NCBI GenBank assembly: GCA_016432325.1
Contig: CP066684.1
Span: 384,001 to 448,000, forward strand
Direction: 5' to 3'
Source of the DNA: Candidatus Aenigmatarchaeota archaeon
GTDB taxonomy: Archaea > Aenigmatarchaeota > Aenigmatarchaeia > PWEA01 > JACQIF01
Length of the DNA stretch: 64,000 nt
Shown here piece after piece: positions 10,028-59,371 of this stretch; within the stretch, counting starts at the first letter, position 1, and every line of letters begins with the position of its first letter. A program made the translations under genes and the position numbers. Below the pieces are notes generated by a model. It did not search any database and was not told the DNA's origin. It saw only the letters and a list, made by a program, of their open reading frames with translations.

Positions 10028-10621
10028 ATGGTCAAACATCTCAAACTTGCTTCTCGACTCCAAGGTGCGTGGGAAACCGGACTGACCGGAGAAAAAATAT
10101 CCATAGGCTGCCGCGTTCCCAAGGAATTCTTCGTCACGAGCGGCGCGGGAGAGAGCGACATAACGATACACGCGGGCTCTTTCGACGAGGCGATGCGCGA
10201 CGCGGGAATAGAGAACTACAACCTGATGCACTACTCCTCCATAATGCCCGCGGGCGCGGTCGAAGTCGAGCGCCCGGAAGGCGCTGTGCACGGCTCCGTT
10301 CTGGAGACGATAATGGCCGTCTCCAACAGCGAGACAGGCGTGCGCGCCACGGCCGGCGTCGTGATGGGTTGGGTCTACGACAAGCGCACAGGCAAGAAGA
10401 TCGGAGGGCTCGTCGCGGAACACAACAGCCACGAAGACGAGGAGCACGCCGTGCGGATGCTGCGCGCGAGCGTAGAGAACATGTTCAAGAACAGATACGG
10501 CAACGAAGCGGAATTGCGAGACGTGCGCATCGTGACAAAGAGCATTGTGCCTGAAAAGCGCTATGGCACGGCCATGGTAGTCGTCGGTTTCACCAGTTAT
10601 GAAGTGCCTGTCCTGAATTAG
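10028..10621 (+). CDS. pdaD: Pyruvoyl-dependent arginine decarboxylase
   Basis: FVTSGAGES, SFDEAMRDAGIENYNLMHYSSIMP (Ser-Ser autocleavage site). Confidence 0.92.
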   Translation: MVKHLKLASRLQGAWETGLTGEKISIGCRVPKEFFVTSGAGESDITIHAGSFDEAMRDAGIENYNLMHYSSIMPAGAVEVERPEGAVHGSVLETIMAVSNSETGVRATAGVVMGWVYDKRTGKKIGGLVAEHNSHEDEEHAVRMLRASVENMFKNRYGNEAELRDVRIVTKSIVPEKRYGTAMVVVGFTSYEVPVLN

Positions 10622-10899
10622 TACCAGTCGACTTCGGGGCCTTTAACGTGTCTCTCCTGTTCGTGGGGCTGACAAGCCTTCTGGAGCTGGACCAGACTGA
10701 CGTGATGCATGGCCATAGCATAGGAGAACGCATCTATCTGTTTTAGCATCTCGGCAACCCGATATCCCAGATCTTCCATTTCCCCACTGGACACCGATGC
10801 GCGAGGACCATAGATAAACATGACTACGTCGCTAGCCGTAGTGCCTGTTTTGAGATTTTCGAAACCACAGTTTCGAATACTCAGAATCGGCGCATTCAT
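10618..10899 (-). CDS. Hypothetical 93-aa ORF whose N-terminus is element-derived
   Basis: ATGA overlap with the rpl15e stop; no recognisable motif. Confidence 0.4.
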
Positions 10900-10919
10900 C
10901 CATAGTGCCGATTCTGAGA
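10832..10919 (-). repeat. Synonymously recoded duplication of the rpl15e 3' end around a double hairpin
   Basis: TCT CAG AAT CGG CAC TAT GGA TGA vs TCT CAA AAC AGG CAC TAC GGC TAG. Confidence 0.9.
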
Positions 10920-11465
10920 CGGGCGCACTTTCTCCGCGCCTTTGCCGACGCTTCTCATGCCGCGCGACTTCCTTCCCGCAGACGTCAAGCCACGGAATAC
11001 GCGCCCCCTATTGGCTCCGTCAACGACCCACGAGACGTCACGGTCGCTGCGCACCGCCGGATGCGAATAGTCGACGAGAACAATCTCATACCACTCGCTC
11101 TTGCCGTCGCGGCCGACCCAGTATGAATTCAGGACTTCCAGATTGACAAACTTCTTCGCGGCGCGCTCTTCGGCAATCCACTGGTGCGACTTCTTCGGAG
11201 TTGCCCAGCGGCCCATGCTCCTCGGTTTGCGACCGCCCGACCAAGAGGGCTTCTTGCGGCCGCCGACATCGACGCGCACGCGCGCCATGACAAAGCCGGA
11301 CTTCGCCTTGTAGCCCAGCGCACGCGCGCGGTCTATCCGGGTGGGACGTTCGATGCGCGTAACTGTGTTTTCGGAACGCCATTTGATAAGTCTCTGTTTC
11401 CAAAGCTCTCCGAGCGCTTCTTGCGGCTTGTTCCATTTCTCTGCCACATACTTGTAGAATCCCAT
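10896..11465 (-). CDS. rpl15e: 50S ribosomal protein L15e
   Basis: [41 protein letters not shown]; ATG 11465 after SD GAGGTG. Confidence 0.98.
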
Positions 11466-11477
11466 CGTATACACCTC

Positions 11478-50274: not shown

Positions 50275-53200
50275 TTACCCATCGGCGAGGGGGATGTCGC
50301 CTGTACGGGCCCGGCGGCCGGAGCCTATGCGCAGCGTGTGCGGCACCGAACCGCCGGCTTCCACGCCCACATTGCGGAAGCTGAACACCTCGAAAACGGC
50401 CTGAGCCGTGTCTGTCAGGGCATCCGTCGAGTTCACGAAGACGTCCATTATCCAGTCGCCTTCGTCAGGACCTTCGGGTATCGTGTAGTTGTATTCGTAC
50501 AGATAGCCATCTTCTCCTGACACGCTCACCTGCGAAATGTTCGTCATCTGGGATATGTTAACGAACTTCGTGCCGTTCACGGACGTTATGTTCAGGAACG
50601 CGCGGTCGATGAGGTTGCGCGTCGACGAATGCGTTATCTGGCTGCGTATCGTCACGACCTCCTGCTCTTCGAAGCTGACCTGGCCGACGAGCTGGTCGTT
50701 GTAGGTGTTCAGCGACTGGATGGTCAGCGTTACAGAGACGGCGCCCACAGTGAATGTTACTGTCGCGTTGCCTGAATTGCCGTCAAACGTAACCGTTGCG
50801 TTGGTTCTCCACGTTCCCGTGTCCGTCGTATCTGTGAAACGGAAGTCCGTCTCGTTGAAATAGCCTGTTGAGTTAGTGGTCGTGAAGACATGGTCGTGTT
50901 TGACGTACGAAGGCGTGGCGTTCTGCAGGCTCAACGTGATGTTGCGCGTTGAATTCTCCGCCTGCTCTGCGCCCAGAGCGAACGTCGGATCAGGGAACGT
51001 GTACGAACGCACGACGTAATCGTCGACCCATCCGTTGTAGAAGTTCGTGCCTGCGGCGCTGCCTATCGTGCGGTACTCTATCTTGTTCCAGGCATTCTCT
51101 ATGTCGCTGGCTGTCGCGCCCACAGAGGCGTTCTTCGTCGCCAGAAGGTCTCCCGTGTCGTTGTAGACGTAGAGCATTACATGCGTGGCGTTGAGCGAGG
51201 CTTCCAGATAGCCCTGGAAAGGCGAGTCGCGCGTGTCCGTCCCTGACACGGCTGACGCGCCCACGACGTCGTCATCATCCACCCTGCCTTCTACGTCGAC
51301 ATCAAGCGCGGCCTGCCTGCCCGTCGCGTGCGCGCGCAGCTTGTCCGGTACCGCATCCACGGACTCGACGAGACCGAAGAACGCTTCAATGTCCGCTGGA
51401 GTGAGGCCGCCGTTCGTTATGGTGCCGTTGAAGTGGAATCTTGTCGAGTTGCCGCTTACCGACGAGGACAGCGTCTGCTCGCGCACGAGCGGGGTCGCGA
51501 CAGGACATTCGTTTCCGGTCTGATTGAACTCTATCCGTTTGTCTGTGGAATTCCACCTTATGTACGAGTTGGTCGGGCTGCACGTGGCGGCCGGCGTCGC
51601 CAGCGAAGGGTCTGCGTCGTACGCGTCGTAGAACGCGAAGACGTTCGTGCCGTTGCTCTTCGATTCGGCGGCCGGATAACCGTAGTACATCGTCATCACG
51701 CGCGTAGAGGACGCGGGTATCGTAGGCATCTTGACCCAGATTTTCGTCGTCGTGCGGTTGGTCGTCGTTTCTATCCAGTACGACAGCTCTGCGCCGTCGG
51801 CATCCACGAACCTGACGTCAGAAGCGTTCGCGTTGAGCTTTCCGGCGCTCGTCAAACTCTGTGTGTTTATCGTCAGCTGTACGGGATGGTTCGTGCGCGC
51901 GACGGTGCTCCGGGCGTTCGATACGGTGATGTTTTGCCTGTACTCGAAACTGTGGTTCCACCAGAATGGGAACGTGAGGCTCGAAGCCGACGTGCCGTTG
52001 GCGAAGCGGACGCGAACGTCCATGCTTGTATTGGAAGGTACGCTGTATGGATCCACGTTGTTTGATATCGTTATCGTCAGTTCGTCCGTATACTTGAACG
52101 CGTTAGACGTCGTTTCGTCGAACGTGTTGCCTCCTGACCCCGTGGAGTTGATGGCCACGGTGCTCCAGTTGCCAAGCTGGTCGTCTGCGGCGAGAGTGTA
52201 CGACGTATGGTTCAGCCATCCGTTGTTGAACCCGACGAGCAGGTCGCTCTTCACTGTCGCCGAGGGGTCGCGTATGCGCACGCGGCCCGTTCCGGCGTTC
52301 ACGTACTGTCCCCGGCCGCCTGTCAGGCGGTAGTCTATCTGCGGACTGGGGCCGCCGCGATTGAAGACGTCCACGGGTATCGTGGTCGCGTTGACATAGT
52401 ACTGGCTGTCGATGTCCAGCACGTTCGTGGCGTTCGCGTCGTTGCCGTTCACGGCGCTGCTCGTGGTGCCTCCGTCATAGAAACGCGCGTCATACTGCCA
52501 GCTCTCGTTCAGGCCTGGCGTGTTGTTCGTGTATGTGTCGTTCGGGGCGCTTCCTGTGTTCACGTTCATAACGGCGCTGAAGCGGCCTGTCGTGGCGCTG
52601 ACAGAAGAAGTGTTCTCGAAGGCGCCGTTGCCGTAAGTGAAATTGAACAGCTGCACCGTCAGCGTTCTGGACGCATCGCCCGTCGGACTCTTGATTCTGT
52701 AGGTCCCGCCGTCCGAATGGAAGAGGATTGCCGTGATGTTTATGGTCTCGTTCTTGTTGTATATTTTCAGCGGCGTCCCGGTGGTCTCGCCGTAGATGTT
52801 GTTCTCCACGTTGGACGTGGCATTAAGGATTATCGTGTTGTTGACGACGAAGGTGGAGCCCGTCGCCTCTGCCATTGTATTGTTGAAATTGAAGGTCAGG
52901 TTTGCCGCTACCACGATGTGCTTGGCGGTCCATGTGCCCACGGCGTCTCCGTTGGGCGTTGTCCTGTCCCAGTTGATTGTCACGCCCGTATCGTTTCCCG
53001 TCGTCAGGTTCGTATTGTATTGCTCGGCGTTTGAAGGGTCATAGAGACGGACTGTCACGGAGGCGTTGATGCGCGGGGCATCATTGCGCGCGCCGACTAT
53101 CGTGGCGTTGATGCGATTGATGTCGCCCCTCATCACATCGCCAAAGAGCCTCGCGTCCGTGGAGTAGTACAGGGTGCTGTCGACGTCTACGTACGTGAAT

Positions 53201-54702
53201 GATGTCTGGTTTTCAATGTAGGCCCCCAACGCAGGATCCGTGGTGGTGTTCGGATAGTGTATGTGGAAAGCGTACTCTTTGCTCTCGTCCGTTCCGGGCG
53301 ATGCGCTTGCGTACGAATCCCCGCAGTCGTTTGCGATGCGGTCCGACCTGACGCCTGTGCCGCCGCTCGAGTTCAGGGCGACCGACGCGTTCAGCGTGCA
53401 GTGGCTCGTTGTAGTGTTCATCTCAACGCGCACGCTCCGCGCGCCAAGGCCCCTTCCCCAGGCGTCGCCGAGAATGAAGCTGTATTCCAGCGGCTCTCCC
53501 CTGTTGAGGGTCTTGTTGAGAACCGTAACCACATTTCTTGCCCTCGGCATTCCGGCGTCCATCACGAGCGTCAGGGTCTTCTCTACCCAGAAAGCGGCGG
53601 CCCTGACAGGCGAGCCGCCGGGCGCCAGGTCGGTCTGTATCGGCACCTCGCTCGCCGTCTGATTGACGAATCCCACGCCTGTGGAGGAGAAGTTCGTCCA
53701 CGACTCCCCGAGAAGCCTCGAGTTCGTCGAAAGATTCAGCGTCACGTTGTAGTCCTGCAGCGCCGCCGATTCAGGCATCGCCCAGAACACGCGGAACGAC
53801 TTGTTCGTGGAGTTTACGGCCAACGGCGACCTGAAGACCTCATGACTCGTCCTGTTGTAAACCAGAAGCGTCATGTTGGCCGGCGCGGCGGACCAGTTGG
53901 CGTTGCCTGTCGGAATGCTCGCGTTGGCGCTCAGGTTGAACTCCATATACACCCTGTCGCCGAGGACGAACTTCTTTTCCGCGGCCAGAAACGTGCTGTT
54001 GGCTGTCAGCAATGACGTCACATTGGCCCTTGCCTTTATCCAACCGACCGTCTGTTTGGACTTCTCAAACTGGCAGTCCGCACCCGGCACCAGACCGAAC
54101 GACGTGTCTGTCTGGTCCGAATCGCCGTGCCAGTCTTCGGCTTCTATGGCGCCGCTGGTGGAGACGACCATCACTGCCATGCGGAACGTGCCCGTATGGT
54201 TCAGGCCCGTTATCCACGCGCTTGTGGAACCCGTCCTGTTCCATGCGTTTATTTTGCCGAGGTCCGCCGTCCCGCTCACAAAATCCGTTCCCGTCCCGAC
54301 AGTAATCTGGGTCCTGTTGTACGCGTAGAAGGTGCCTGTCTTGGGGACTCGCCACCACGTACCGACCGTATCCTTCCACTGACTGCTCATGTTTACGTCG
54401 TCCCACAGGAGGGCAGACGTCACGTAAAGGTTTCTCGTCGTCGCGGACTGTTCAATGTTGTAGGACAGGTTGAAATCCGGATTGTCGTTAGCGTTCCAGT
54501 CGCTCTGTCCGTCGTCCTGTATGAACCTTACCTGAGCCTCGAAACCGCAGGCTGCCAGTATGTTCGAGACGTTCGCTGTCGCGTTCGCGGGCACCGCCGT
54601 GACTCCGTTATACGTAGCGGCCGACACGTCATGCGCAAGCATGATAAAAACGAAAGAAACGACGACGACCGCCAAGATAGAACGTCCGGAACCCATTTCC
54701 AC
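50275..54702 (-). CDS. Giant secreted surface protein C: related scaffold with a DUF2341-like insert
   Basis: GTFRM, FVLGDRVY, WTNFS, AFWVE, DSY...PG; WWNHSFEYRQNITV...DVRF...LSYWIE...IWVK...MYYG. Confidence 0.88.
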   Translation of the reverse strand: MEMGSGRSILAVVVVSFVFIMLAHDVSAATYNGVTAVPANATANVSNILAACGFEAQVRFIQDDGQSDWNANDNPDFNLSYNIEQSATTRNLYVTSALLWDDVNMSSQWKDTVGTWWRVPKTGTFYAYNRTQITVGTGTDFVSGTADLGKINAWNRTGSTSAWITGLNHTGTFRMAVMVVSTSGAIEAEDWHGDSDQTDTSFGLVPGADCQFEKSKQTVGWIKARANVTSLLTANSTFLAAEKKFVLGDRVYMEFNLSANASIPTGNANWSAAPANMTLLVYNRTSHEVFRSPLAVNSTNKSFRVFWAMPESAALQDYNVTLNLSTNSRLLGESWTNFSSTGVGFVNQTASEVPIQTDLAPGGSPVRAAAFWVEKTLTLVMDAGMPRARNVVTVLNKTLNRGEPLEYSFILGDAWGRGLGARSVRVEMNTTTSHCTLNASVALNSSGGTGVRSDRIANDCGDSYASASPGTDESKEYAFHIHYPNTTTDPALGAYIENQTSFTYVDVDSTLYYSTDARLFGDVMRGDINRINATIVGARNDAPRINASVTVRLYDPSNAEQYNTNLTTGNDTGVTINWDRTTPNGDAVGTWTAKHIVVAANLTFNFNNTMAEATGSTFVVNNTIILNATSNVENNIYGETTGTPLKIYNKNETINITAILFHSDGGTYRIKSPTGDASRTLTVQLFNFTYGNGAFENTSSVSATTGRFSAVMNVNTGSAPNDTYTNNTPGLNESWQYDARFYDGGTTSSAVNGNDANATNVLDIDSQYYVNATTIPVDVFNRGGPSPQIDYRLTGGRGQYVNAGTGRVRIRDPSATVKSDLLVGFNNGWLNHTSYTLAADDQLGNWSTVAINSTGSGGNTFDETTSNAFKYTDELTITISNNVDPYSVPSNTSMDVRVRFANGTSASSLTFPFWWNHSFEYRQNITVSNARSTVARTNHPVQLTINTQSLTSAGKLNANASDVRFVDADGAELSYWIETTTNRTTTKIWVKMPTIPASSTRVMTMYYGYPAAESKSNGTNVFAFYDAYDADPSLATPAATCSPTNSYIRWNSTDKRIEFNQTGNECPVATPLVREQTLSSSVSGNSTRFHFNGTITNGGLTPADIEAFFGLVESVDAVPDKLRAHATGRQAALDVDVEGRVDDDDVVGASAVSGTDTRDSPFQGYLEASLNATHVMLYVYNDTGDLLATKNASVGATASDIENAWNKIEYRTIGSAAGTNFYNGWVDDYVVRSYTFPDPTFALGAEQAENSTRNITLSLQNATPSYVKHDHVFTTTNSTGYFNETDFRFTDTTDTGTWRTNATVTFDGNSGNATVTFTVGAVSVTLTIQSLNTYNDQLVGQVSFEEQEVVTIRSQITHSSTRNLIDRAFLNITSVNGTKFVNISQMTNISQVSVSGEDGYLYEYNYTIPEGPDEGDWIMDVFVNSTDALTDTAQAVFEVFSFRNVGVEAGGSVPHTLRIGSGRRARTGDIPLADG

Positions 54703-54787: not shown

Positions 54788-55273
54788 ATGCTCGGCTTCG
54801 TGGAACGATATCTTGGATTCAGGGTAAACTGGACGAGGGTGGCGTTCCTCGCGGCGGCCGTTGTCGCGATAGCCGTCGCCGTTCTCGGCCTGCTTCCCGC
54901 GTCTCCTGCAGGCATTCCATTTGCGCCAAGCCAGACGGAATTCCAACGCCAGGAACAGCAGTTTCTGGAAAAGGTGGAGAGCGGCGAAGTGGAACCTGTT
55001 CTCACGCAGGAGGTCCGCGTGACGAGCGCCGGCTTTGACCCGCAGTTCGCACTGATAGAGTTCGTGCAGGCAACGCAACCCGGAGAGCGCGGGGTCGCGC
55101 GGGTGCTGATAAGGAACGCGGACTCGCGCGTACGGACTATCGTATTGGGACAGAACGACGTTCGCACGCTCACGCCTGGATATCAATTCACGTTAACGTT
55201 CAACGCACCGACAGAAATCGAGATATGGGACAAGGACGCGCCTTCTGTAAGAGGAAAGATTTTCGTCAGATAG
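54788..55273 (+). CDS. Membrane-anchored cupredoxin-like protein lacking copper ligands
   Basis: TM anchor; GFDP, NAD..VRT, LTPG..F..TF..P, GKIFV. Confidence 0.65.
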   Translation: MLGFVERYLGFRVNWTRVAFLAAAVVAIAVAVLGLLPASPAGIPFAPSQTEFQRQEQQFLEKVESGEVEPVLTQEVRVTSAGFDPQFALIEFVQATQPGERGVARVLIRNADSRVRTIVLGQNDVRTLTPGYQFTLTFNAPTEIEIWDKDAPSVRGKIFVR

Positions 55274-55317
55274 GCCGACGAAAACCCGAGAGGCATCTCA
55301 AGATCTTTGTAAGGCGA
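55256..55317 (+). repeat. Synonymously recoded duplication of gene end KIFVR around two hairpins
   Basis: AAG ATT TTC GTC AGA TAG vs AAG ATC TTT GTA AGG CGA, period 44. Confidence 0.85.
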
Positions 55318-55323
55318 GCGGGC

Positions 55324-56133
55324 TCAGCTCTTGGGAATATCCTTGGTCTTCGCCATGACGGTCGTGTTCACCCAGATTTTCTCCACGGGGTCCACGCGCA
55401 GCGACGAATTGAAGCCGAAGACGCGGCCAACCGTTATGTTCACCGTGTTAGCCGAGCCTGTGAAGTTTATCATGTAGACGCTCGTTCCGGTGCGGGAAAC
55501 GGAGCTTGTGAATGTGCGGTTCAGGACCGATATGTGCAGGGTCATGTTTCCGGACGTTTCGGATATCGTGGATATGTTGGCCGCGGAAACGCCTGACGTG
55601 AGCGGCACCACAAAGACCTCATAACGGGTGATGAAGTTCGCGCTCGTATCCTTCTGGAGAACGCTTATGTTGTTCTTCGCAAAGTCCGAATAGTTGTAGG
55701 CGGCGTTCATGCCTGTTATCGTGAAAAACGACTGGTTGGCCGGAACGCTCGCATTGAAATCCAGCGCGTATGAAAGGTTCATCTGGTCGGCCAGGAAATC
55801 GCGGTAGGCCTTGAACGACACGTTATAAGGCTGGACGCGCGGCGCCTTGTCGGTGAAGTTCACGAACGTATGGGTTCGATTGGCCGTGACGCGAACGCCG
55901 ACATCCGCGAGCTTTTGCACGTGCGAGCCCGCGTAGAGGAACGCCTGCGGGATGCCGATGTCCTCGCTTGTGGCGAGTTCGAGGTCGCTGGCAAAGACCC
56001 TGTAGTTGGTCAGAAGCGAAACAAGCGAGACGGCTATGAGGACGGACATCAATGTGAAAACGATTCCCTTTGCGACGTTTTCAGTCTTCCCTCTTCTTCG
56101 GGAAGGCGTAAAGACTATTCCGCGCCGGCTCAC
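55324..56133 (-). CDS. Pilin-like protein with duplicated cleavage motif
   Basis: RG|IVFT...KG|IVFTL. Confidence 0.82.
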   Translation of the reverse strand: MSRRGIVFTPSRRRGKTENVAKGIVFTLMSVLIAVSLVSLLTNYRVFASDLELATSEDIGIPQAFLYAGSHVQKLADVGVRVTANRTHTFVNFTDKAPRVQPYNVSFKAYRDFLADQMNLSYALDFNASVPANQSFFTITGMNAAYNYSDFAKNNISVLQKDTSANFITRYEVFVVPLTSGVSAANISTISETSGNMTLHISVLNRTFTSSVSRTGTSVYMINFTGSANTVNITVGRVFGFNSSLRVDPVEKIWVNTTVMAKTKDIPKS

Positions 56134-56621
56134 AAGGACACCCCGAGACGGACCTTGGCTATGGCCGTCATGTTCTTCACCTGCGACGACGCGGATTCGT
56201 TGACCATTATGGGAACGGGCCTGGACGCGTATACCGCGTCCCTTTCCTCCGGTATCATATTGACCGTCAACGTGCGGTCGAACGTGAGCCCGCCGGTGGG
56301 CGTTACGTTGAAATAGTCCACGATGAACGCATAGCGGACAAACGACGGCAGCGTCTGGTTCACAGTGGCGTTTATCGCGTCCGCGTTCCTCGAGTCGAAC
56401 GCGCCTCTCTCCTCCATCACGGCCAGCGTGTCGATGGACATGCGTTCGAGGACGGCCTCGCTTCTCGACGGCTGTTCGACGGTGAAGGAGAACGACAGGA
56501 TTGCAAAGGCTATTATGGCCGCGCCGATGAGCGAATCGACTGTGAAGACAAAGCCCTTTGTGCTGTTTTCAAGCTTCCCGCGCTGCGCTTGTGAAGCAGT
56601 AAAAACAAAGTTTTTGTCCAT
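56130..56621 (-). CDS. Pilin-like protein with duplicated leader motif
   Basis: KNFVFT...KG|FVFTVD. Confidence 0.85.
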   Translation of the reverse strand: MDKNFVFTASQAQRGKLENSTKGFVFTVDSLIGAAIIAFAILSFSFTVEQPSRSEAVLERMSIDTLAVMEERGAFDSRNADAINATVNQTLPSFVRYAFIVDYFNVTPTGGLTFDRTLTVNMIPEERDAVYASRPVPIMVNESASSQVKNMTAIAKVRLGVSL

Positions 56622-56622
56622 G

Positions 56623-57249
56623 TCATGGCCTCCACAGCGTCACGCGCAGAGTGCAGTTGCGCGAATTCTCCGTCATCACGTAGCGGTCTATTGAAATCTG
56701 TTCCTTGGCGCCCGCCGGCTGGGCGCCTACTGTCAGGTTCGTGGACTGGACCGTGCAGTTGGAGCCGCCGCTTGTCAGCAGCTGCACGTAAAGGCTGTTT
56801 GGTCCTGTCGAGAGGTTGCCGCGCAGGTCTTTGGCCGTCATCCGCGTCAGCGCGATGAGCTTGTCATCCGCAAGGCGATGGTCTCCGTATGCCAATCCCA
56901 CGCTCTTGATATTCGTCGAGTTGTACCAGCCGTCGGGCTCTCCTGACGTAAGAACGAGCTGGTCGCTAAGCCCGATGAGCCTGTCCTGCGTTCTCCTGAA
57001 CTCCTCGGAGTCTGCCACGGAATGGGATATGGAAGACTCCGCGTGCAGGACGCCCGCTATCGATATCGTGAATATGACAAGCGCCAACACGACGTCCAGA
57101 GAGACGGCCTGTCCCTTTCCCGACAGAAGGAGGGAAAACTGAAACCGCGTTTCAGATTTTCCTGCCCCAAGGGCGGGAAAATCGTTCGCACGCGGCGAGG
57201 CCGCGGCCCCGCCGTCTTCAGCACGTCTGCACATTCGTACCGTCCGCAT
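56623..57249 (-). CDS. Pilin-like protein with palindrome-expanded leader
   Basis: KG|QAVSLD; TSGEPDGW. Confidence 0.82.
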   Translation of the reverse strand: MRTVRMCRRAEDGGAAASPRANDFPALGAGKSETRFQFSLLLSGKGQAVSLDVVLALVIFTISIAGVLHAESSISHSVADSEEFRRTQDRLIGLSDQLVLTSGEPDGWYNSTNIKSVGLAYGDHRLADDKLIALTRMTAKDLRGNLSTGPNSLYVQLLTSGGSNCTVQSTNLTVGAQPAGAKEQISIDRYVMTENSRNCTLRVTLWRP

Positions 57250-57796
57250 TCCAGCACTTCACCTCTATATTGTCACCCGTGTTGTTGACGTTCACGAGCG
57301 CCGTTCTCAGATCCGCGTCCTTTACCTTCGCCGTTATCAGTCTCGCCGATATTATAAGGGTCTCGTTCCTCGGCCCCGGCCACGTCATCTCCACCTTGCG
57401 ATATTTGCCGAGAACCTTGAACGTGGTCGCGTTCTGCACTCCCGCCCGGGCGGCTACCGTGATGTTCGTCTGGAAGCCCTTGCCGCCTATGGCCGCGGCG
57501 TCGATGGCGCCGGACACCTTCTCCACCTCGCGCTGCGCCGCAAACTGCTGGCGCGCCTTTTCGACGTTCAGGTTGCGTTCGTTGAGGGAAAATAATATGA
57601 TTGAAGCGAGAACAAGGACGATGCCTGCCACGACCATGAACTCGATCCCTGTTTGCGCCTTTCCCGTGCACGAGAAGCTTCGCTTCTCGGCATGTTCGGC
57701 CTTCGGGCCGAACTTTTCGGACCGAGTCCGAAAATGTCGGGACCTGTGGGTCCCGTACACCCGCAGGAGGGAAACCGTTTTCACATTCAATACCAT
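57218..57796 (-). CDS. Pilin-like protein with palindrome-expanded leader
   Basis: KA|QTGIEF. Confidence 0.82.
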   Translation of the reverse strand: MVLNVKTVSLLRVYGTHRSRHFRTRSEKFGPKAEHAEKRSFSCTGKAQTGIEFMVVAGIVLVLASIILFSLNERNLNVEKARQQFAAQREVEKVSGAIDAAAIGGKGFQTNITVAARAGVQNATTFKVLGKYRKVEMTWPGPRNETLIISARLITAKVKDADLRTALVNVNNTGDNIEVKCWNADGTNVQTC

Positions 57797-57800
57797 TAAA

Positions 57801-58262
57801 TTACCCCGCAGACGGCCTGAGGCTCTGCACCTCAAGCGTATAGTTCATGGCAACAGAGCCTCCCGAACCGCCCTGGCTGACTCCCCTGAAAACGTACGTG
57901 CCTGCCGCGCCGGGCAGCGTCCCCGTAACGTTGCAGGCAGTCGTCGCCGTCACCGCGCTTTCCGCGTCCTTCGACGTCAGTATCAGCTTTATCGTCCTGT
58001 TGCCTATAGAGCTGGCCATCAGGTTAACCTCCCGCGGAATGTAGACGTCCCTGCGCGACGTCGTGTTTTTCGGCGCCGTGCACAGGAAATTCGCCATGTC
58101 CGCAAGCTCGTTCGCGGCCACGCGCGCCTCTGCGACGCGCAGCGAGGCTGTCTGGTTCGCGAATAGGTTCAGGGAAGTCGCGAGCACCACGACCAGCGCC
58201 GCCGTCAGGAAGACCGCTAGCATCATATACTCTACGGACGTCTGGCCGGCGCGCGACTCCAT
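57801..58262 (-). CDS. Class III signal peptide pilin (QxSxE type)
   Basis: RAG|QTSVEY. Confidence 0.85.
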   Translation of the reverse strand: MESRAGQTSVEYMMLAVFLTAALVVVLATSLNLFANQTASLRVAEARVAANELADMANFLCTAPKNTTSRRDVYIPREVNLMASSIGNRTIKLILTSKDAESAVTATTACNVTGTLPGAAGTYVFRGVSQGGSGGSVAMNYTLEVQSLRPSAG

Positions 58263-58750: not shown

Positions 58751-59371
58751 TCAGTCCGTCTGGGCTCTGGCCTTGAGTGTCGTCGACGGCGCATAGATGA
58801 CGTTCGTCTCGGTATCGGTGTAGTTGAATGTCAGCTTTACGGAGTAGATGCCTCCTATGCTCTTGGTTATGCCGTGAAGCGTCGTGTTTATGGGCAGGAC
58901 CCGCGTCGCCGTCTCTCCGGGGAACAGTGTTGCAGGCGTAACGTTCGTCACCAGTTGCGTCAGCGTGGACTTGTCTATTTCTGTTACGTTAATCGAATTG
59001 AGCGTTATCTTGTTGGCGCCGTTGTTTTGGACCACCACGGTGAACGTATCGTTGACGTTGTCCCCGCCCGTAACGCCCCATTTGTGGCCGATGACTGCCA
59101 GCTGTTCGAACTGTTGCGAAAGCGACGAACCCGAGCTTGACAAGGAGAATCCTATATCGCCTATGTTGAGGCTGAAGATGGCCACGCCCACGATAACCAC
59201 TATGGCGATGGCCCACGCGTAGTTCATGAGATACTCGATGGCGGCCTGTCCGCGCCTGTTCCCCGACGGTATCTCAACACCACGCCTGCTGGCGCGGTTC
59301 ATTAGATACTCGATGGCGGCCTGTCCGCGCCTTTGCATTTGCCGTATTGGTTTTCCTGCCGTCCTTTTCAT
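58751..59371 (-). CDS. Pilin with tandemly duplicated signal-peptide motif (start 59371 or 59386)
   Basis: RRG|QAAIEYLMN present twice, then YAWAIAIV. Confidence 0.87.
   Translation of the reverse strand: MKRTAGKPIRQMQRRGQAAIEYLMNRASRRGVEIPSGNRRGQAAIEYLMNYAWAIAIVVIVGVAIFSLNIGDIGFSLSSSGSSLSQQFEQLAVIGHKWGVTGGDNVNDTFTVVVQNNGANKITLNSINVTEIDKSTLTQLVTNVTPATLFPGETATRVLPINTTLHGITKSIGGIYSVKLTFNYTDTETNVIYAPSTTLKARAQTD

Follow-up and report, generated by a model that had tools for sequence, protein, structure and literature searches.

A silently respelled second copy of a gene end behind the stop codon of a cupredoxin-like gene in an Aenigmatarchaeota genome

The last five codons of a cupredoxin-like gene in the genome of a groundwater archaeon (Candidatus Aenigmatarchaeota) are spelled a second time, in other codons for the same peptide (KIFVR), shortly behind the stop codon. 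This echo of the gene end is real, it lies beyond chance, and it is one of three or four sites of the same layout in the genome. The window in which it was found is a stretch of 64,000 nucleotides (contig CP066684.1, positions 384,001 to 448,000), to which the coordinates below refer unless the genome is named (Table 1). The best explanation, which we hold with about as much doubt as confidence, is that the second copy is a stranded and now untranslated gene end beside a conserved terminator-like pair of hairpins, and that it would owe its place to recombination or duplication.

Table 1. Positions of the gene end, its hairpins and second copy, and of the gene ends compared with it
Feature	Position	Strand	Description
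Cupredoxin-like gene	54788..55273	+	ORF; 161-aa protein; ends KIFVR + stop
Copy 1	55256..55273	+	last five codons (KIFVR) + stop TAG; direct reading, ORF list
Hairpin 1	55260..55284		stop codon in loop; 5' arm inside copy 1
Hairpin 2	55285..55302	-	terminator-like for convergent gene
Copy 2	55300..55314	+	KIFVR in other codons; frame +2 relative to gene
Convergent pilin-like gene	55324..56133	-	ORF; 269 aa; ortholog in sister species
rpl15e gene	10896..11474	-
rpl15e end	10832..10919	-	7 codons + stop, 40-nt two-hairpin spacer, fully synonymous copy + another stop; period 64
tfb	about 4.8 kb past window end (L033:1778-1900)
Fourth same-layout gene end	genome 272000-272518 (outside window)	-	period 43

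The codons of copy 1 (55256-55270) and the stop TAG (55271-55273) are read directly from the sequence. Copy 2 follows copy 1 with a period of 44 and therefore out of frame; it matches at 11 of 15 bases, and the four differences are all synonymous third-position changes, just as the initial annotation had described. That annotation had also proposed an arm that pairs with copy 1 and a small hairpin before copy 2, and both are present. The first arm of hairpin 1 (55260-55267) lies within copy 1 and has its exact reverse complement at 55277-55284, whereas in copy 2 three of the eight corresponding positions are different. The small hairpin (55288-55299) has, on the plus strand, 4-bp arms at 55288-55291 and 55296-55299 around a 4-nt loop. 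Both hairpins are stronger on the minus-strand RNA, where T-rich sequence follows each of them: hairpin 1, with 8 pairs on the plus strand (-7.3 kcal/mol, z = -2.4 by folding), there extends to a stem of 13 pairs (55257-55287; -15.5 kcal/mol, z = -5.4), and hairpin 2 reaches 7 pairs, including G-U, and runs directly into four T.

Copy 2 is followed by the triplet CGA (55315-55317), which is no stop and lies one transition from TGA, and its frame continues for about 100 codons antisense into the convergent pilin-like gene. The stops of the two genes are 50 nt apart, and both hairpins and copy 2 occupy this gap. Between the cupredoxin-like stop and copy 2 there are only 26 nt, and no integrase, recombinase or kilobase cargo lies between the copies. 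Neither the 15-mer nor the 24-mer of copy 2 occurs a second time in this genome or in that of the sister species, and no covariance model of Rfam 15 matched positions 55000-55600 at E up to 1. Population contigs (Logan; four groundwater runs of one study, possibly the source samples), in which rare variants are hidden, were identical at the site and contained no joint that skips the 44 nt.

The label 'cupredoxin-like' given in the initial annotation holds at the level of the fold. An N-terminal membrane helix precedes a C-terminal cupredoxin-like β-sandwich whose last strand is GKIFVR, and the protein has no Pfam match. An AlphaFold model (pLDDT about 90 for residues 50-161) has as its best PDB matches the Cupredoxin_1 structure 4hci, EfeO and plastocyanins (E = 4e-7; TM-score about 0.7 on the target for 4hci), and the comparison of the model with these solved structures places it within the Greek-key β-sandwich of the cupredoxin fold. 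The protein contains neither cysteine nor histidine; the set of type-1 copper ligands (His, Cys, His, Met) is therefore incomplete and a type-1 copper site absent. All aligned homologues (four rows, three distinct proteins) share an invariant C-terminal RGKIFVR; the third of them (P0003) ends KIFVREV, and the tail of the protein has an internal xVR repeat. Scans of metagenomes and genomes for relatives of the gene returned the sister genome only.

The neighbourhood has features of its own. On the minus strand at 50275-54702 lies a gene for a 1475-aa secreted protein that is very rich in N-glycosylation sequons and carries DUF2341 and MG2 domains, and it adjoins a row of genes with class III (pilin-like) signal peptides (55324-57835). 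Also on the minus strand, at 59222-59332, a pilin leader contains a young in-frame duplication of 36 bp with one mismatch and a period of 75. Its 39-nt spacer holds inverted and near-direct copies of the first bases of the repeat, and 8 nt from further along the repeat recur there in inverted form as well; the duplication looks like a product of local template switching.

The genome is a single contig of 874,869 bp (GC 0.56), in which 943 non-overlapping ORFs of at least 80 aa were called. An echo of the last five residues, in any frame and within 120 nt after the stop, was found for three of the 943 genes, namely rpl15e, tfb and the cupredoxin-like gene. How often a five-codon match would arise behind a stop by chance, the quantity on which the initial annotation had made its case depend, can be put in numbers: when downstream regions were permuted among genes, 0.10 echoes were expected within 120 nt, with a maximum of one in 200 permutations (Poisson p = 1.5e-4 for the three observed), and random pairing of tails with downstream regions gave 0.046 echo genes within 60 nt. 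In 300,000 shuffles of the 60 nt downstream of the cupredoxin-like stop, KIFVR did not appear once. A perfect stem of at least 8 bp with the stop in its loop is present at nine of the 943 genes, and all three echo genes are among these nine (hypergeometric p = 6e-7), which argues that echo and arm form one composite feature, at the present site as well. Such stop-enclosing stems are not in themselves enriched at gene ends (9 of 943, against 5 to 11 at shifted control positions). The joint chance of an echo and a stop-enclosing hairpin at this site is about 1e-3.

Set side by side, the ends of rpl15e, tfb and the cupredoxin-like gene have the same layout: an in-gene copy with its stop, a complementary arm, a separate small hairpin, and an out-of-frame synonymous copy. 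In each of them the arm can pair without a mismatch with 8-12 nt of the in-gene copy, though not with the downstream copy; the second hairpin is unrelated to the first, and copy 2 begins at the 3' foot of that second hairpin. The proposal of the initial annotation that the rpl15e architecture is repeated in an unrelated gene is thus borne out, with the caveats that the KIFVR echo, at five codons, is the shortest of the three, that it lacks a stop, and that it is not intact in the sister species. The repeats are 15 to 33 nt long. In sequence the spacers resemble neither one another nor anything else in the genome (unique at up to 3-5 mismatches), and so do not represent a multicopy element. The downstream copy keeps a stop of its own at rpl15e (in both species), at tfb and at the fourth site, but not at the cupredoxin-like gene. 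Between the copies of tfb and of rpl15e there are 6-7 differences, essentially all of them silent. Codon usage does not tell the native copy from the other.

At the fourth site, an 8-nt arm that encloses the stop and a small hairpin are followed by an echo of six of seven residues (M to Q) with its own, different stop. A scan at the nucleotide level returned more gene-end duplicates downstream of stops (genome 721572-722036, 802143-802646, 165620-168286 and 125542-126138; periods 29-109), which show non-synonymous changes or a frameshift and look as if they might be decayed forms of the same kind of event. The gene-end duplicates of this genome therefore span the range from intact to frameshifted.

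Several further observations attach to these loci. The three peptide-perfect echoes (rpl15e, cupredoxin-like and tfb) all lie within 58 kb (genome 394.9-452.8 kb) of the 875-kb genome, a clustering whose chance we roughly estimate at about 0.013. The acidic tail of TFB (EVEKK.KE.. and then the stop) is conserved across the order (L127-L146), and its echo, present in this genome only, stands directly after a run of seven T that doubles as an arm. Downstream of rpl15e, a 93-aa ORF (10618-10899, minus strand), whose ATG overlaps the rpl15e stop, crosses the two-hairpin cassette and the silent copy in a frame other than that of the echo and then extends, without a change of frame, into the following RNase P subunit-like gene, an arrangement that is absent in the sister species.

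This sister species (G001), an Aenigmatarchaeota MAG from groundwater, is the only congener compared. Its proteins have a median amino-acid identity of 62.6% with those of the present genome (282 reciprocal best hits), and ordinary 3' flanks of orthologues cannot be aligned. The comparison with the ortholog, a check proposed in the initial annotation, upheld the hairpin and not the echo. The cupredoxin-like orthologue also ends in KIFVR, and its stop lies within a 9-bp hairpin at the same place, both arms of which have changed together so that pairing is retained. An intact KIFVR echo is, however, absent from its convergent gap, which is 31 nt long as against 50 nt here and contains fragments only, although the protein end is invariant. 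In the MAFFT alignment most of copy 2 falls in a 17-nt segment specific to the present genome. The Ile and Phe codons of copy 1 are spelled alike in both species, so that at least two of the four silent differences arose on the lineage of copy 2, or else copy 2 came from another allele.

At rpl15e, by comparison, the entire cassette is common to both species. Stem 1 carries three compensatory double changes and stem 2 carries one. The periods are unequal (64 and 62), and a comparison of one species' silent copy with the other's gives 8 differences in 24 bases, none of which alters the peptide; each copy keeps a stop. Frameshifting or readthrough into the downstream copy was rejected, given the unequal periods and a stop within the arm in the copy-2 frame of the sister species, and a small ORF ending in the rpl15e copy 2 was rejected since its start codon exists in the present genome (G000) only; none of these routes can thus reach the silent copy in both species. 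Outside the genus no rpl15e echo was found among 28 rpl15e loci examined, and a search with the back-translated pattern of the rpl15e end returned the sister genome and chance matches only. The tfb echo has no counterpart among 18 order-level relatives. A five-residue echo (RAGLL) in the sister species lacks the arm and is probably due to chance.

The hairpins may also serve the genes between which they lie. In the sister species a different hairpin occupies the position of hairpin 2 and is followed by four T on the minus strand, so that the minus-strand order (stop, hairpin, four T, hairpin 1) is the same in both genomes. The minus-strand hairpins with their four T, and the order shared with the sister species, fit a 3'-end or terminator structure for the pilin-like gene, and we infer from the sequence that the hairpin pair would be such a structure and would overlap the cupredoxin-like end. 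Inferred likewise, the hairpins probably cap the cupredoxin mRNA just past its stop. Termination in archaea does not require a hairpin, and a scan with a terminator consensus gave no more sites than shuffled sequence (3 against 2.1). The spacing of the genes bears on copy 2 itself. Convergent genes in this genome are separated by a median of 5 nt; 54% of the gaps are 10 nt or less, and 80 of the 213 convergent pairs overlap (gap below zero). If copy 2 and the next triplet are taken as the end of the gene, the gap to the convergent stop is 6 nt, which is typical for the genome. This spacing, together with a CGA one transition away from TGA, is why copy 2 can be read as a stranded gene end.

According to this explanation, copy 2 would not be translated today, being out of frame, without a stop and antisense into the neighbour. 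It would represent either the end that this lineage formerly used or that of a diverged allele, brought in through recombination or duplication at the hairpins, since rare stable hairpins are likely break or switch points. An origin from two alleles would explain the silent-only differences without any unknown kind of decoding and would fit the link to rare stable hairpins. Stranded ends of this kind may arise and then decay, which would account for the range from intact to frameshifted duplicates. A donor allele, or a lineage that uses the copy-2 spelling as its real end, was not found in the one congener and the wider scans. In addition, the 8 of 24 peptide-preserving differences at rpl15e would not be expected if a stranded end simply decayed, unless ends are replaced often, and the rpl15e comparison argues that at least some silent copies are under lasting protein-level constraint. 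No known mechanism fully explains a protein spelling that is kept in untranslated copies.

The alternatives differ in which of these observations they leave aside. Fold-back or template switching in place could have copied the gene end forward, as copy 2, and backward, as the arm, with neutral decay ever since and the silent-only differences a matter of luck. The arm does repeat copy 1 in inverted form, hairpin and echo go together throughout, decayed gene-end duplicates exist in the genome, and part of the spacer of the pilin-leader duplication is made up of sections of the repeat itself in inverted and direct orientation. For the present site taken by itself, the probability that all four changes are silent is about 0.004-0.012, so that luck at about the 1% level could account for the pattern. 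For the differences at tfb and rpl15e, however, neutral decay gives a probability of about 1e-5 or less. Moreover, at every site it is copy 1, never copy 2, to which the arm corresponds, and hairpin 2 is not derived from local sequence, so that we regard this account as unlikely, though it comes nearest to the stranded end. Slightly less likely still is that copy 2 is a usable spare end, with the block left out precisely, whether through deletion of the DNA, excision from the RNA or hopping of the ribosome, or with ends swapped among strains, in which case silent copies would be read periodically and held under protein-level selection. The rpl15e locus speaks for it most clearly, with its peptide and stop kept across 8 of 24 differences and unequal periods and with compensatory changes in both hairpins. 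The stops kept at rpl15e, tfb and the fourth site, as well as the abutting hairpins 1 and 2, which would place the beginnings of the two copies next to each other, point the same way. At the cupredoxin-like gene, on the other hand, skipping would lead past the CGA behind copy 2 into about 100 nonsense residues, and the sister species lacks an intact KIFVR copy despite its invariant protein end. By inspection, no bulge-helix-bulge motif can be drawn around the unbroken stem of hairpin 1, and a form shorter by 44 nt is missing from the contigs of the four runs, in which rare variants would be hidden.

The direct repeats that flank a hairpin-rich spacer could also suggest a miniature mobile hairpin element (MITE- or RPE-like) that was inserted at the gene end with a long target-site duplication. 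This is improbable: each spacer is unique, the repeats vary in length between sites, the arm is site-specific as the complement of the local gene, and a fresh target duplication would be identical rather than silently respelled. As for a chance match in a T-rich terminator region, the echo spans only five codons with 11 of 15 bases alike, the protein tail has its internal xVR repeat, and in about 250,000 windows scanned single chance matches are expected somewhere. Against the 0.046-0.10 echoes expected per genome, though, stand three, every one of them with a rare stop-enclosing hairpin, and we consider coincidence very improbable indeed. The stranded gene end therefore remains the explanation that we prefer, at the level of confidence given at the outset.

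If the class is what it seems to be, the ends of genes in very small archaeal genomes hold short blocks of hairpins with which another spelling of the last codons is either brought in or left in place. The silent rpl15e spelling has remained protein-perfect in two species with about 63% amino-acid identity, which ordinary decoding does not account for. The cupredoxin-like site indicates that genes other than highly conserved housekeeping ones can have the layout, and it links the hairpins with the 3' end of the convergent neighbour. For annotation, such echoes could be mistaken for frameshifted or duplicated genes. Should the second copy prove to be a usable spare end, the layout would be a way, not described before, in which essential genes could have mobile or structural DNA at their ends and yet never be broken.

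Partial likenesses to this arrangement are found in several known systems. Integrative elements such as prophage e14 in the icd gene of E. coli and the islands in tRNA genes restore the gene end that they interrupt; elements of the e14 type are kilobases long, with an integrase and att sites, and their two copies differ silently, both having evolved as coding sequence in different lineages. An active gene end followed by a displaced, differently spelled copy is common to these elements and the present site, but here 26 nt of hairpins separate the copies and there is neither an enzyme gene nor a repeated sequence. In fungal mitochondria, mobile endonuclease ORFs bring a replacement C-terminus, as in the hybrid atp6 gene of Allomyces, and the mitochondrial DNA of Allomyces reportedly also contains double-hairpin elements (Paquin, Laforest and Lang 2000, as cited in PMC3787672). 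The likeness extends to a gene end that is replaced with the old end stranded downstream, and to small double-hairpin DNA in compact genomes; unlike in Allomyces, no endonuclease ORF is present here, and whereas the double-hairpin elements there form a sequence family, the spacers here are unique to each site.

In quasipalindrome mutation and correction, template switching copies nearby sequence in inverted orientation without error and maintains the perfect match. Such a process could explain the arm and the apparent compensatory change without selection, but neither the forward copy nor its silent-only respelling. Inspection speaks against an archaeal bulge-helix-bulge intron, whose cut sites would show two 3-nt bulges on opposite strands with a 4-bp helix between them: hairpin 1 is an unbroken stem of 8-12 bp at all sites. 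The bypass cassette of phage T4 gene 60 and the mitochondrial 'byps' (bioRxiv 10.1101/2022.08.31.505936) likewise place a codon and a stop in a hairpin, followed by a short non-coding block with matching coding sequence beyond it. A stop within a hairpin behind a take-off region is present here too, but a resumed frame that would complete the protein is not: the gene 60 protein is incomplete without the hop and its frame continues, whereas the cupredoxin-like protein is complete at copy 1 and nothing after copy 2 is conserved. From bidirectional terminators, in which a hairpin is joined to a T-run, the site differs in that one arm is part of the gene, the loop contains the stop codon, and such stems are no rarer inside genes than at gene ends in this genome. 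It shares with them hairpins readable from both strands, the short distance between convergent genes, a T-rich stretch behind the hairpins on the minus strand, and a position that is kept in the sister species.
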